64,000 bases of DNA from an uncultured Planctomycetaceae bacterium. Lineage in GTDB: Bacteria > Planctomycetota > Planctomycetia > Planctomycetales > Planctomycetaceae. The position numbers are program-made. Each line of letters begins with the position of its first letter. The stretch's first letter is position 1. The stretch lies in assembly GCA_963813715.1 (NCBI GenBank), contig CAWFAK010000016.1, positions 256,001-320,000 on the forward strand, given 5' to 3'. Shown here in pieces: positions 24,001 to 30,000 of this stretch.

Positions 24001-27000
24001 CTCCGGCGCAGTCCCCGGCCGAAAGTGCGGAGACCATCCGGCGGCTGCTGGCGGGCGAACCGGGGCCGGCGCGGAACATTGTGCTGGCGAACTCGGCGGC
24101 TGCGTTGATCGCGGCCGGACGGAGCACCAATCCCCGCGAAGCCGCGCAGAAAGGGGCGGCTGCCCTCGATTCGGGAGCGGCGGCGGAGGTGCTGCGGAGG
24201 CTGGTGGAATTCGCGAAAAAATGACCTTGCGCGGCGTGAAAATCGGTGTCGAAAACTTCGTGCAAAGCGGAAAAGGGAGCGCACTTGGCTCCCTTGCGTT
24301 GGCCATCGCGCACCCTATAATTCGATGAGGTTTCAGTGATTTTTTGGCAACAATCGCTCGGGTCTGCGGGCGAAAATGTGCCGATGAACTAAGATGGGAC
24401 CGGTCGGGCGGGCAGCTCGCGGCTTGGCAGTTTTTAGGTCGGGACGATCCATGATCCAGTGGTTCCGAAATGTGTGGGTGGCGGTGGTCACCGTGTTTCA
24501 GGGGCTGTTTGTCACCCTTGGAATCATGGGTAAGACGTACCGCCGCCGCACGTTCACGGAGGTCTACGAGTATCCGGAAGTGCCTGTGCCGGTGAAGCCG
24601 CGCTACCGCGGATTCCACCGGTTCGACCTGACCGCTTGTATCGGCTGCGAAAAGTGTGCGGTCGCCTGCCCGGTGGACTGCATCTATATCGAGAAACAGA
24701 AGGCCCCGGTCGGAAAAGGTTTCCGCATCGACGGCTTTACGATCGACTATACGAAGTGCATGTTTTGCGCGTTGTGCGTCGAACCGTGCCCGGTCGACTG
24801 CATCTTCATGGGGTCGAATTTCGACCTCAGCTGCTACAGCCGCGACGGGTGCATCGTCGACTACGCCAAGCTGCCTTTGCAGACCGCCTGGGGGCAGACC
24901 ACGCTGAACCCGACGGCCGTTTCCGAGTCTAAAGTTTTGTATCAGCCGGTTTGGGTGCAAGGGGAACCGAGCCCCTTCGAGTTCGCGCCGGCTGCCGGCG
25001 AACACTGAAATCGGACGCTGAAATCGGAAATTTGAAATCGGACACTAAGCTCGGCTTGGCATCCGCGAGGTCCCGTCCATGAACACTGCAGCGGGCAAGA
25101 AGTATTTCACCGTTACCGAAGCCAACGCCATGTTGCCGTTGGTCCGGGCGATCGTCGATGACATTGTGCAGCTGAAGAACGAGATCGAGGAGCGGTCCGA
25201 GCGGCTGCGGAACGTGCGTCGCCTGCCGGGCCAGCGTCGCGGCGAAGACAACCCCTACGACGAAGAGGTCCAGCAGATCGAAGTGGAGATCGAGAAGGAG
25301 AACGATCGCCTCGAGGAATTCTGCGACGAGCTGCGGCGCCTGGGCGTCGAGTTGAAGGACCCGCGCGTCGGCCTGATCGACTTCCTCACGCAGATCGAAG
25401 GCCGCGAGGCCTATCTCTGCTGGAAGCTGGGCGAAGGCGACATTGCCTACTGGCACGAGATCGAAGCCGGCTTCGCGGGGCGACAATCGCTGCTCGAAGG
25501 ATCGGCCCACGGCGGCAAGCCGAACGGCGGCACGGAAAAGAAGTAGCGCGCAGACCACGGAAACCACGCAGGATCCATGACAGACCTCGTCGGGCACTTC
25601 ATTATCTTTGGCATCGTCGCGGTCGCCCTGCTGGCCATCCCGCTGATCATTGGCTGGTTCGTCCGCCCCAATCTGCCCACGCCCGAAAAAGTTGCAGTCT
25701 ACGAGTGCGGCGAGCCGACGATCGGCTCGAGCTACATTCAGTTCGACTTGCGGTTCTACGTCGTCGCGCTGTTGTTCATCATCTTCGACGTGGAAGTGGC
25801 GTTCTTCTTTCCGTGGGCACTGATCTACGGCGGAGCCACGCAGCTGGCCGACCCGCGCTTGGCGCCCGAAGCTCGTATGGTGATCACGGAGAAGCTGCTC
25901 AACGCGCCCGCGTCGCAGGCCGTGACACCGATCACCTCCGCGACGGGCTTTCGCCTGGCGGCGCTGAGCTTCTTCGACATCCTGGTCTTTTTCGCGGTGT
26001 TGCTCGTCGGCTTCGCCTACGTGTGGAAGCGGGGCGACCTCGATTGGGTGCGTGCCGTCTCACGAAGGTCGACGTTCCCCGCCCAAGCCGGAACTCCGCG
26101 CGTCCCTGCGCCCGAACCAGTCCGCGTGCCGCAAACCGTGAGCTGAGGCGGCGCCCTCGCGGCGGAATTTCCCACTCGGCTCGGGCGGCGCACCAACGAA
26201 CGCTGGATCCATGAACGCTCAAGAAATTCACCAGTTGCTGCTCGAACGGTTCGGGGCGTCGAGAATCACCGGCGTCAACCTGACCGCCACGGACCCCTGG
26301 GTCGAGGTCGCTCCCGCCGCCATCCACGAGGTGAGCCTCTTCTGCCGCGACGACGATCGGCTACGGCTCAACCACCTCAACAACCTGTGCGGCGTCGACT
26401 ATTGCGAGCCCGATCCAAAGAAGGCGGCCAAGTACGGGCACGAGCCGCACATCGAGGTCGTGTATCACGTGTCGAGCTTGCCGCGGAAGCACAAAATCAC
26501 GCTCAAGGTGATGCTGCCCCGCTGGAAAGACGGCAAGACGGGCGAAATCCCCGAGGTCGACTCGGTGGCCGACATTTGGGGCATCGCCGACTGGCACGAA
26601 CGGGAAACCTACGACCTGATGGGCATTCGCTTCTTGGGACATCCCGAACCTGCGGCGGATCCTCTGCCCGGAAGACTGGGTGGGCTATCCGCTCCGCAAA
26701 GACTACGAGATGCCGCTGGAATACCACGAAATCCGGGGACGGTAAGGGCGCTCGGGCTGACGAGCGTTTCGCCGGTTGCCGACAAGCACGAAGCTCGAAT
26801 GACGAATGAAGCACTAAGCACGAATGATTCCCCTCGTTCGTGCTTCGGTCATTCGGAAATTCTTTCGTCATTCGGATTTCGTCATTCGACATTTGTGAGC
26901 CGCAGATGAGCATGCAATTGGAAGATCCCCGCATCGTCGAGTTCGACGTGCGGACCGACGAGATGCTGGTCAACATGGGGCCGCAGCATCCCAGCACTCA

Positions 27001-30000
27001 CGGCGTGCTCAGGCTCTTGTTGCGGACCGACGGCGAAGTCGTCCACGAGGTGACGCCGCACATCGGCTACCTGCACCGCTGTGCCGAAAAGATCGGCGAG
27101 AATCTCGCGCCGCCGCAATGGATCCCCTACACCGACCGGATGGATTACCTGGCCGGGATGAACATGAATCTCGGCTGGGCGCTGGCGGTCGAAAAGCTCG
27201 TGAAGATGGAGGTGCCCGAAAAGGCGATGGTCCTTCGCGTGCTCATCGCCGAGATGGGCCGCATCGCCAGTCACCTCGTGGGGATGGGGGCGTACGGGCT
27301 CGATCTCGGCAGTTTCAGCCCGTTTTTGTACGCCTTTCGCGAGCGGGAAATCGTTCTCGACTTGTTCGAGGAAGTCTGCGGGGCACGGCTTACCTACAGC
27401 TACCTGACCATGGGCGGCGCCACGCACGATTTTCCCGAATCGATCACCATTCCGCCGGGCCTGGCCGCGCTCACCGGCAAGTCGCCCAAGCTGCAGCTAT
27501 CGTGGCTCGAGGCGTGCGGCCTGTTTCTCGATTGGCTCGAACCGCGGATCAGCGAGTACCACAAGCTCCTGACCCGCAATCAGATCTTCATCAAGCGGAC
27601 GGCCGGCTTGGGGATTCTCTCGCCCGAAATGGCGATCAGTTACGGCTGCACGGGCCCCGTGCTGCGGGCCAGCGGCGTCGATTTTGACCTCCGCCGCGAC
27701 GGCGACCCGATCTACACCCGCATGTACCAGGGCTACGACTACAACGTCATCGTCGCTCCGTTCCAGGATGCGCCGCCGGAGGTCGTGCTCGGCGACAACT
27801 GGTGCCGCTTCTACGTGCGGATGCTGGAGGTGGTCCAGTCGATTCGCCTCGTGCGACAGGCGATGGCCAAGTATCCGACGGCTCAGGGCACCTACCGCGT
27901 TCCCTTCAAGATGAGCACCAAGCTGCCCAAGGACGAAGTCTATCTCGAGACCGAATGTCCCCGCGGACAGATGGGCTTCTACATCGTCGGCAACGGCGAC
28001 GCCAACCCGCTGCGGGCCCGGGCCAAGAGCTCGTGCTTCTGCAACCTGTCGATCACCGCCCCCATCTGCAAAGACTTTCTGCTCGGCGACATCCCGGCGA
28101 TCGTCGGCTCCCTCGACATCGTGATGGGCGAGATCGACCGGTAACGCGGTCGCCGGACGCGGGAATGACAGTTGGTGATTCCCAACCCGCCGCGAAAACT
28201 GGGCCTCGAAGCTCTTCAACTCGCCGTTCGCGAGCGGCCACGAACGCTGATGTTCGGTGCGCTTGGGATCTTGATTCCCGTCGCCCAGGCGCTCGTGCTC
28301 TGGCTCTTCTCGACCCTCGCTCACAACGCGGACGACGCCAGGATTCGGGCCGGCGGCAAGGCCGCCCAGGGGGAAGTCCTGCGTGTTGAGGAGGATGCCT
28401 TCGGCCCGACCCTGAACAACGTGCCGCCGAAAAAGGTCACCTTCCGTTACAAGGCTGACGGCGTCGAACATGAGAAGTCGGTGACCGTCAACGCCCCCGA
28501 AGTGTCCGGGTGGAAGAGTGGGAGACCCGTCGCAGTCGTCTATTTGAACGGCGAGGCGATCTTGGCTGACATACACCCCCCCGAGTTTCCAATCCCGCCG
28601 GGTTTGATGATCGCGTCGATCGTCTGTTGGTCGCTCGCTGTCGTTGCGGTTCTCGCTTACGGATTGGCCGGGGCGCGGCGGAAGTATCTCGTCCTGCGGC
28701 ACGGCGTGCTCCGCGAGGGGAAATTGCTTTCCTTTGAGACGTGGACCATGTTCACGTCGTCATTTCCGAGCGGCTGGTTCCGCGTGAGCTACACGTATGT
28801 GGACTCGACCGGGCGCGAGCGGCTCGGCGTCTCGCGCTCGCGCGATTTGACGCTGGCCAACCACAAGCAAAAGGGAGACCCGATCGAGATTCTGGTCATG
28901 CCATCGGACGAAAGACTCTCGACCCTGCTCGATAGTGCCGCCGAGCGCAGCGCTGATCCGAACGTGAAGAAGGTTCGCGCGCGATTCAATCCGGCCGGTC
29001 GCTGCCCCTATGGTCGCCGGTCGTCAAAAGCCCCGCCACCGTCAAAGTCGCTGGCCAATCGTGTGTGCGCATTGGATCTAACCGCCATGCCGTGGGGACT
29101 TGGACGGCGCTTGGAAAGATTTCCGAGTCAGGCCGGGCTTGCCGTCGATAACGGTTAGACGCGGCGCGCGGATTGCGCCGGGAATGCGTCTGGCTGGAGG
29201 CAGGGAACGCCGTGGGTCTGTTCGTCTCTGGGCAGCGCTCGATCGAAGTGAGATCGATGCCGCGACGATCGAGTGAACGCCGGCCGCGACGGTTGACTTG
29301 CTCGCGTCGCATAGCCGGCGTGCTCTTGGTCGCGTGGCTGGCTGCCTCTGGCTGCAGCCCCGCTCCGCACACCAATCTGGTCGACTGGGTGCATAACGGT
29401 TTCAAGGTCGGGCCGAATTATTGTCCGCCGTCGGCGCCCGTCTCGTCGGGTTGGATCGACGCGGGTGACGGCCGCGTGCACGTCGATCCGGCGCAGGACT
29501 GCGCCTGGTGGACGGTCTTCAACGACTCCACGCTCAATAGCCTGGTGGAGACGGCGTACCGGCAGAATCTCGATCTTCGGGCGGCAGGCGCCGGATCCTG
29601 CAGAGCCGCGCACAGCGGAATATCGCCGTCGGCAATCTCTTTCCGCAGACGCAGACCGCCCAGGCTAACTACGTGCATGCACAGATCAGCCAGAACCTGG
29701 GGCTGCCGATCCCCAGCCCGTTCAACGTCTGGGCCGACGGCTTCAATCTGTCGTGGGAGATCGATTTCTGGGGCCAGTATCGCCGTTCGGTCGAAGCGGC
29801 CGAGGCCGACTTGAACTGCGACGACCGAAAGTTATGGCGACACGCTGGTGATGTTGCTCTCCGAAGTGGCCACCAACTACGTCCAGCTGCGAACGTACGA
29901 GCAGCGGCTCACTTTCGCGCGGCAGAACGTGGAGATTCAAAAACGCACGCTGTCGCTGGCCGAGGCCCGCTGGCGGACGGGCCGCTCGACCGAGCTCGAT

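Follow-up and report, generated by a model that had tools for sequence, protein, structure and literature searches.

The genome of this uncultured Planctomycetaceae bacterium (G000) holds the genes of an EFG-less complex I of 11 subunits (NuoA-D and NuoH-N) spread over three loci. We believe it likely that these loci give one inherited ion pump of the ferredoxin-type:quinone kind, whose N2 subunit, NuoB, is co-transcribed with the SUF genes. The support for a single EFG-less complex, as proposed in the preliminary description, comes from the joint loss of the loci in some genomes, from intermediates of gene order and from trees of NuoD and NuoB. Co-loss and conservation suggest that the subunits assemble into one complex in which quinone reduction drives ion pumping. 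The electrons for quinone would come not from NADH but from a soluble carrier of low potential, a ferredoxin that docks on NuoI being the likeliest.

One locus lies in the window, i.e., the 64,000-nucleotide stretch of contig C16 that was analysed, with all its genes on the plus strand. trpD (23206..24224; PF00591) is a conserved upstream neighbour outside the complex. It is followed on the same strand by a predicted sigma-70-like promoter (24294..24321; TTGCGT, 16 bases, TATAAT), by nuoI of the dispersed type (24451..25008; two 4Fe-4S clusters, N6a/N6b), which matches the Fer4 model and, below the NCBIfam cut-offs, the NuoI models, by a DUF2203 gene that we regard as a passenger of the locus (25079..25546; PF09969, E 9e-38), and by nuoA (25577..26146; PF00507, E 7e-28), nuoC (26211..26745; PF00329, with an apparent frameshift) and nuoD of the dispersed type (26909..28144; NF004739, over its cut-off). 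The gap between nuoC and nuoD contains a short intergenic repeat found by blastn (26788..26894), with 41 matches in the genome, its own locus counted. Of 23 nuoI loci, 14 have a loose -35/-10 pattern upstream of the gene (shuffled mean 1.0). Contigs from three RNA libraries span the nuoI locus, and two of the three also span its flanks, so this coverage is no proof of expression.

The second locus has the order nuoH-J-K-L-M-N (C8:511579-519766), and in the third (C5:117540) nuoB is flanked by a SufR-type regulator and by sufC-B-D plus a Rieske ferredoxin gene. None of the three includes nuoEFG; a full canonical nuoA-N, with EFG, is found at C8:363330-378247. The positions of all these loci in the preliminary description hold on re-check, as does the divergence of the two sets, which are 30-52% identical subunit by subunit (intact proteins of G062, a genome of the same genus, were compared, with canonical NuoA taken from G000). 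The dispersed set shares its core subunits with the canonical 14-subunit clade C enzyme and forms a separate clade. Identity with that enzyme was rejected: NuoE, F and G are not part of the set, and 45 of its 76 carriers have no canonical operon.

The frameshift reported earlier in nuoJ is present; however, it is not the sole case, as nuoC, nuoL and nuoN of the set are also frameshifted in G000, and so are trpD, sufB and canonical nuo genes. These frameshifts look like assembly errors, since the extra base of nuoC (near 26646) is missing from all four independent runs and the genes are intact in G062, where each of the 11 subunits matches Nuo models and NuoC has 177 aa. The nuoC frameshift is an assembly error; that of trpD (near 24005), where two of the three runs with cover at the site have an inserted base, is probably another.

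The residues of complex I that serve pumping, ligate cluster N2 and line the quinone site are well known. In alignments of the dispersed type, the N2 ligands of NuoB (C38, C39, C104 and C135; 68 rows), eight cysteines of NuoI (42 rows) and H27, H31, Y80 and D132 of NuoD (58 rows; roles assigned also by alignment to Thermus Nqo4) are invariant, the quinone-site residues of NuoD being kept, and charged pumping residues are visible in NuoK, L, M and N of G062. The surface of NuoI is less acidic than in the canonical type: its cluster domain averages -0.4 (n=24), close to neutral, where canonical NuoI has -6.8 (n=19). In the PDB, NuoD is best matched by Thermus Nqo4 (275 bits) and NdhH (264-269), while hydrogenase subunits score far lower (81-107). 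Group 4 NiFe hydrogenases, MBH/MBS and Fpo have the NuoB/C/D/I/H core in common with the dispersed set, which differs from them in having full NuoA, J, K, L, M and N. A group 4 NiFe hydrogenase is out because the NuoD homologue lacks the two nickel-binding CxxC motifs, with DRMDY and MGEIDR at those places.

The family was sampled with 80 genomes, one per genus. The dispersed type is widespread there, as claimed, and commoner than the canonical one: NuoB was found in 74, NuoD in 73 and NuoH in 74 genomes (the first two counts each take in one fragmentary case), against 32 with the canonical set. With 73 of 80, dispersed NuoD is thus commoner than the earlier estimate of 41 of 61. In an order-wide sample the NuoB orthologue is present in 96 of 120 genomes. 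Of the 80 family genomes, 69 have all three loci and four have none of them; the seven partial cases are all drafts. In all four loss genomes sufR is directly followed by sufC, with no nuoB between them. By a tree of SufR, SufC and SufB (quick method) these four are not monophyletic, so the complex was lost at least twice.

The NuoD types, previously sorted by score pattern, are now placed by trees in separate clades, and the NuoB types likewise. In the NuoD tree the dispersed type of the class is held together at 100% SH-aLRT and is sister to Phycisphaerales (99%), the canonical type is a separate clade (100%), and the families with nuoB in suf are grouped at 90%. A single origin of the suf placement is not rejected (p-AU 0.61), and the NuoB tree leaves one move into suf and several undistinguished. 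All trees are quick searches with weak internal branches and no NDH-1 rows, based on 112 of 133 rows for NuoD (most family rows were thinned, and 150 representatives without names were left out) and 134 of 186 for NuoB. Within the wider NuoD clade some relatives (Bacteroidota) may use NuoEFG encoded elsewhere.

Intact EFG-less operons were found at 15 of 20 chosen loci across the phylum. Other families have the order I-(DUF)-A-B-C, with nuoB still between nuoA and nuoC; in three of the four fetched Pirellulales-type loci (L231-L233) the operon is otherwise whole and nuoB alone is displaced; and nuoB is inside suf in 13 families. We take these orders and the trees to indicate that the dispersed set is the 11-gene operon inherited in the phylum and later rearranged. 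An ancestral A-B-C-D-H-I-J-K-L-M-N operon would have been rearranged to I-(DUF2203)-A-B-C-D, after which nuoB would have moved between sufR and sufC, bringing its own housekeeping promoter; in Planctomycetaceae nuoHJKLMN would have split off as well. To call the set a "second" complex I, as was done initially, is misleading, since it is the commoner one and probably also the older.

The arrangement regulator-nuoB-sufC, also claimed before, was confirmed in 36 of 40 family genomes with the locus fetched. In G029 nuoB has come away from suf, and in G064 from sufR, so the suf placement is not essential. The regulator carries the ligand pattern C-x12-C-x2-E-x24-C, scored as given for SufR in 10.64898/2025.12.26.696629, and the RGRP hook in 60 of 60 cases; against TIGR02702 it reaches 39 bits, below the cut-off. 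A palindromic box, the predicted operator, lies upstream of sufR in 52 of 59 loci, 49 of which served to train the matrix. The box was found at 0 of 23 nuoI loci and 0 of 4 nuoH loci, and nuoB is the sole nuo gene downstream of it. A sigma-70-like motif precedes nuoB in 15 of 39 family loci (under half), against a shuffled mean of 1.6, the motif being derived from the same sequences in which it was counted; it was seen before sufC in 0 of 63 cases and in 0 of 4 spacers of loss genomes. We presume that in many loci nuoB comes with a sigma-70-like promoter of its own. The likely effect of the move would be that NuoB, with its cluster N2 at the quinone site, shares a message with the SufCBD scaffold, the builder of such clusters, and that it alone among the subunits stands behind the SufR operator.

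Concerning NADH, 26 of the 80 genomes have the canonical enzyme only, 48 Na+-NQR only, six both and none neither, a nearly exclusive distribution (NqrA was scored as absent in G004, where its match is weak, E 9e-4). Considering that every genome has one of these enzymes and that 20 carriers of the dispersed set (13 of high quality, and two, G008 and G063, closed) have no PF10589, i.e., NuoF-family, match, the dispersed complex is probably not the NADH entry. As to the donor, 2-oxoacid:ferredoxin oxidoreductase is kept in all four loss genomes and was not found in 10 carriers; neither this enzyme nor FdxA tracks the complex. A two-cluster ferredoxin is lost in all four loss genomes; it was also not found in nine family carriers and in three of five genomes of other families. 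Four genomes without it lie in one branch, so the co-loss is partly due to shared descent. The predicted complex of this ferredoxin with NuoI, NuoB and NuoD scored 0.00 in a run without folded controls and speaks neither for nor against the pairing. No candidate donor tracks the complex perfectly, which counts against our best explanation.

The gene after nuoN is a better companion of the complex than DUF2203. Its product has a predicted four-helix ferritin fold (pLDDT 87.6; Foldseek probability 1.0 for Dps and mini-bacterioferritin, with TM 0.74-0.79 but an E of only 3e-3), and PF00210 is matched at E up to 0.05 by 46 of 106 members of its family. It is lost in all four loss genomes, and 57 of 59 good carriers have it; it was not found in the closed carrier G008, nor after nine of the 15 intact operons of other classes. 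No Glu or His that could serve as a di-iron ligand occurs in the columns at least 90% conserved (106 rows). An accessory subunit or an assembly factor is the probable role, suggested by this co-occurrence. The DUF2203 gene does lie near the dispersed nuo genes, as noted before (within 6 kb of nuoD in 59 of 66 genomes with both); the doubt expressed about it as a subunit was justified, for it is kept in all four genomes without the complex and was not found in nine of the 76 genomes keeping the complex. It is probably not a required subunit. Its adjacency to trpD persists in G028 and G058, two of the loss genomes. Its predicted structure, a helical hairpin with a four-stranded sheet, returned generic helical-hairpin matches alone (best Z 7.9) in fold searches and no PDB match by sequence.

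It is tempting to see nuoB in suf as an accident that became frozen: a single old translocation between two essential constitutive units, of no regulatory significance, that left an ordinary 11-subunit enzyme. The single origin that is not rejected, the grouping of suf-type families by NuoD, the promoter-like motif of nuoB, the I-A-B-C-D families, which manage without the link, and its loss in G029 all agree with this; however, 36 of 40 family loci and 12 further families preserve the order although the other nuo genes around it were reshuffled, and we consider the accident possible, if doubtful. A closer bond would make the ancestral complex of Planctomycetia an energy-linked partner of SUF: NuoB, produced along with SufBCD, would be its limiting, cluster-gated subunit, the ferritin-fold protein would serve as a twelfth subunit or as an assembly chaperone, and the reaction could be reversed from quinol to ferredoxin so as to supply cluster synthesis. 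This seems to us rather improbable. The complex might also work mainly in reverse, the proton-motive force driving electrons from quinol to ferredoxin as reductant for Fe-S building and for other biosynthesis that depends on ferredoxin; PMC4453560 describes complex I of other bacteria working in this direction. This would account for nuoB beside sufCBD and the Rieske ferredoxin gene, which follows sufD in most fetched loci, and would suit the 74-100% conservation of NuoB across the family, the retention of the complex by 76 of 80 genomes in addition to Na+-NQR or the canonical enzyme, and its presence in the 10 with no 2-oxoacid oxidoreductase match. Yet sufR-sufC-sufB is kept in all four loss genomes, meaning that SUF works without the complex, and nuoB is near a SufR box while the other ten genes are not; we judge this unlikely.

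That the dispersed subunits act with borrowed NuoEFG, or with a diaphorase of the Hox/Fds type, as a second NADH dehydrogenase could be argued from the 31 of 76 carriers with a canonical operon, from G046, where the loci are adjacent and divergent, and from NuoF-family genes of other length in some carriers. The 45 carriers without the canonical set and the 20 without a PF10589 match make it unlikely as a general mechanism, and we give it very little credence. Least credible of all is a NuoB that now serves SUF as a carrier or scaffold of clusters, with its role in the pump gone: its place inside suf in 13 families would fit, but in all four loss cases nuoD and nuoH have gone with it, it is the sole NuoB of genomes that possess the other subunits, and all five examined genomes of two other families that have this NuoB also have NuoD and NuoH. 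The inherited ferredoxin-type:quinone pump is the reading that we retain.

The genes of cyanobacterial and chloroplast NDH-1 are also dispersed, and that enzyme resembles ours in having no N-module and in NdhH being among the best PDB matches of NuoD; the planctomycete host, in contrast, is no phototroph. Photosynthetic complex I has a ferredoxin donor and extra small subunits (PMC11238625). Enzymes of NuoA-D plus H-N, lacking NuoEFG, are already known, and ferredoxin-type donors have been proposed for them (PMC3144371, PMC11238625); Moparthi and Hagerhall (2011; PMC3144371) name Planctomycetales among the carriers and mention dispersed nuo clusters. With these enzymes, Desulfitobacterium included, the planctomycete set has in common the gene content and the lack of an adjoining dedicated donor gene. 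It differs in being split in three loci with nuoB alone in the suf operon, in standing beside Na+-NQR or a 14-subunit enzyme, and in its ferritin-fold companion gene. The locus shares with the SufR-controlled suf operons (Mycobacterium Rv1460, cyanobacterial SufR) the regulator in first place, the ligands, the RGRP hook and an A/T-flanked promoter palindrome; unlike them, it has a respiratory subunit gene between sufR and sufC, and its palindrome core, TGACA-N8-TGTCA, differs from the cores quoted in 10.64898/2025.12.26.696629. We did not find the suf placement of nuoB in print: the titles and abstracts returned by full-text searches mention neither it nor the planctomycete set. The supplements of PMC3144371 may list the planctomycete carriers, and an article of 2018 in ISME J, on homologues of complex I, may treat the clade. 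The supplement of Spero et al. (2015; PMC4453560), a survey that counted 14-subunit sets only, gives one clade C enzyme each to Pirellula staleyi and Isosphaera pallida and none to Rhodopirellula baltica.

The observation corrects surveys that score such planctomycete genomes as having no complex I. The donor and role of the 11-subunit enzyme are treated as open questions in PMC3144371 and PMC11238625; in the present case an entire aerobic class possesses it in addition to a separate NADH dehydrogenase, natural losses and intermediates of gene order offer clean comparisons, and the ferritin-fold protein and the two-cluster ferredoxin are two new candidate partners. A respiratory subunit kept in suf across 13 families would be an unusual means of adjusting the supply of clusters to the building of a complex rich in Fe-S; were complex I indeed a partner of SUF, a respiratory pump would be genetically coupled, in a direct way, to the biogenesis of Fe-S clusters across these families.

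In the genome from which the window derives, the genes of an 11-subunit complex I without NuoEFG lie in three places: nuoI, DUF2203, nuoA, nuoC and nuoD on the forward strand (window 24451-28144), nuoH-J-K-L-M-N (contig C8:511579-519766), and nuoB (C5:117540), which is flanked by a regulator and by sufC-sufB-sufD-Rieske ferredoxin. A full canonical nuoA-N set including EFG is found at C8:363330-378247; dispersed and canonical subunits are 30-52% identical. With all of these loci located, the three-locus layout and the separate canonical operon of the preliminary description are real. 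That description held nuoJ to be frameshifted, as indeed it is, together with nuoC, nuoL and nuoN. We read these frameshifts as assembly errors, since the nuoC shift is missing in all four independent runs and the 11 dispersed genes are all intact in a congeneric genome. Single-base frameshifts are common in conserved genes of this genome (window 23206-24224 and 29173-31003; sufB in the fetched locus L003; nuoF, nuoM and nuoN in L001), and its assembly seems error-prone in homopolymers. An intergenic repeat (window 26788-26894) has about 40 matches in the genome.

Among 80 Planctomycetaceae genomes, one per genus, NuoB of the dispersed type occurs in 74, NuoD in 73 and NuoH in 74, and the canonical set in 32, which agrees with the earlier statement that the dispersed type is the commoner one. 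The complete set of three loci is seen in 69 genomes and no part of it in four (G001, G028, G057, G058); the seven partial cases comprise five genomes less than 90% complete and two assemblies broken into about 600-800 contigs. A second sample (n=120) has the NuoB orthologue in 96 genomes, two genera standing at 0/13 and 0/7. All four loss genomes have sufC directly after the regulator, and they do not form one clade in a SufR+SufC+SufB tree, whose support is modest, so that at least two losses are indicated. The distance between nuoH and nuoD is 0.3-5.7 Mb in seven closed genomes; considering that three unlinked loci are lost together, they are best read as one machine. DUF2203, whose role as a subunit had already been doubted, is probably a passenger, since it is kept in 4/4 loss genomes, is not found in nine carriers of the dispersed set, and occurs also in the Bacillus subtilis, Thermus and Sulfolobus controls.

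The NuoD types had previously been sorted by score pattern; a NuoD tree of 112 rows now places the canonical type in a clade apart from the dispersed type. The dispersed type of the class is one clade (support 100), sister to Phycisphaerales (99), and both are nested in a clade (99) with other Planctomycetota, Ignavibacteria, Chlorobi and Bacteroidota; the NuoB tree is consistent with this at that level. The intact order A-B-C-D-H-I-J-K-L without EFG is found in 15 of 20 selected loci of the phylum, nuoI is shifted to the front (I-A-B-C) in Phycisphaerales and Gemmataceae loci, and genomes G354 and G415 have I-DUF2203-A-B-C-D. Three of four fetched loci of the Pirellulales type are a single operon minus nuoB only. 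The order regulator-nuoB-sufC occurs in 12 of 20 selected loci of the class, from 12 families (13 with Planctomycetaceae added), and a single origin of the move of nuoB into suf is not rejected (p-AU 0.61). A planctomycete-type I-DUF2203-A-B-C locus (L120) lies on a contig labelled Alcaligenaceae, possibly a binning error. Canonical and EFG-less genes stand divergent, back to back, in L243 (G046:C109), L102 (G215) and L103 (G159). The second complex of family f76 is of another kind, with NuoB, C and D in one long frame (L208, G390:C1:4160000-4180000), and groups with Verrucomicrobiota in the NuoD tree.

As to the suf locus, the SufR ligand pattern and the RGRP hook are present in 60/60 regulator copies. 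The palindrome TTTTTGACAA-N6-TTGTCAAAAA is found upstream of the regulator in 52 of 59 loci (49 of these 59 were in its training set) and in 2/295 shuffles. The conserved SufR-type putative operator of the source genome (L003:8656-8681; C5:116655), excluded from training, is the best-scoring site genome-wide; a second good match is at C5:481235 (21 bits). No such palindrome was found before nuoI or nuoH. A sigma-70-like motif, defined post hoc on the same sequences in which it was counted, occurs in the sufR-nuoB spacer of 15/39 family loci versus a shuffled mean of 1.6, in 0/63 sequences before sufC and in 0/4 loss-genome spacers; a scan of the source genome's spacers gave no terminator-like site. 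We infer, as the simplest model, that a nuoB-sufCBD message would come from an internal promoter, with additional read-through under SufR control. Any regulatory meaning of the placement is a separate question, so the readings of function and of placement are not all mutually exclusive. In several loci sufR has a PF06155 gene (gamma-butyrobetaine-hydroxylase-like N-terminal domain; L003:8241-8546) as a divergent or close neighbour.

Judged by their residues, the dispersed subunits look functional: the four N2 cysteines of NuoB (68 rows), the eight cysteines of NuoI (42 rows) and the quinone-site His, His, Tyr and Asp of NuoD (58 rows) are kept. NuoL, M, N and K score above the Nuo model cut-offs, and NuoH and NuoJ match below theirs. 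No NiFe motifs were found in dispersed NuoD, which scores 275 bits with Thermus Nqo4, 264-269 with NdhH and 81-107 with hydrogenase subunits. The cluster domain of dispersed NuoI is near neutral (charge -0.4) versus acidic in the canonical one (-6.8), a hint only that it would suit an acidic ferredoxin.

A two-cluster ferredoxin, which has no family name over the cut-off, is a candidate carrier for the complex. It is unlinked (C8:67053-67442; L296:5054-5443) and occurs once per genome in 67/80, in two mutually exclusive forms, a short one of about 130 residues (32 genomes) and a long one of about 205 residues (35 genomes). It is missing from 4/4 loss genomes and also from nine carriers, six of which lack 2-oxoacid:ferredoxin oxidoreductase as well. 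On the downstream side of the nuoB in the suf locus L072 (G014:C3), at a distance of about 5 kb, is a gene for pyruvate:ferredoxin oxidoreductase. Directly 3' of nuoN is a gene of 146 residues (L002:5098-5535, from C8), not noted in the preliminary description, with a ferritin/Dps fold and without conserved iron ligands. Throughout the phylum it keeps company with nuoN, and it disappears where the complex does: it occurs in 67/80 genomes, including 57/59 good carriers and 0/4 loss genomes, 6-10 kb from nuoH in 55/55 same-contig cases, and stands behind nuoN also in G354, G415 and G379. Behind intact operons of other classes it is present in 5/15, with one more weak case and nine without it.

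The enzyme type is already known, and PMC3144371 names Planctomycetales among the carriers of 11-subunit complex I. As far as our search of the literature reached, we found no description of an arrangement in three loci that has nuoB in suf, of their joint loss, of the complementarity with Na+-NQR or of the ferritin-fold companion. Each of the 80 family genomes has canonical complex I or Na+-NQR, and few have both (canonical only 26, Na+-NQR only 48, both 6, neither 0); the counts come from related genomes, and a p-value is therefore not used as evidence. The dispersed set is additional to one or the other in 76/80, and it cannot generally borrow NuoEFG, considering that 45 carriers have no canonical set and 20 no NuoF-family (PF10589) match. 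We believe that these bacteria probably do not use the dispersed set as their NADH entry and that its function is most likely that of a forward ferredoxin-type:quinone pump.
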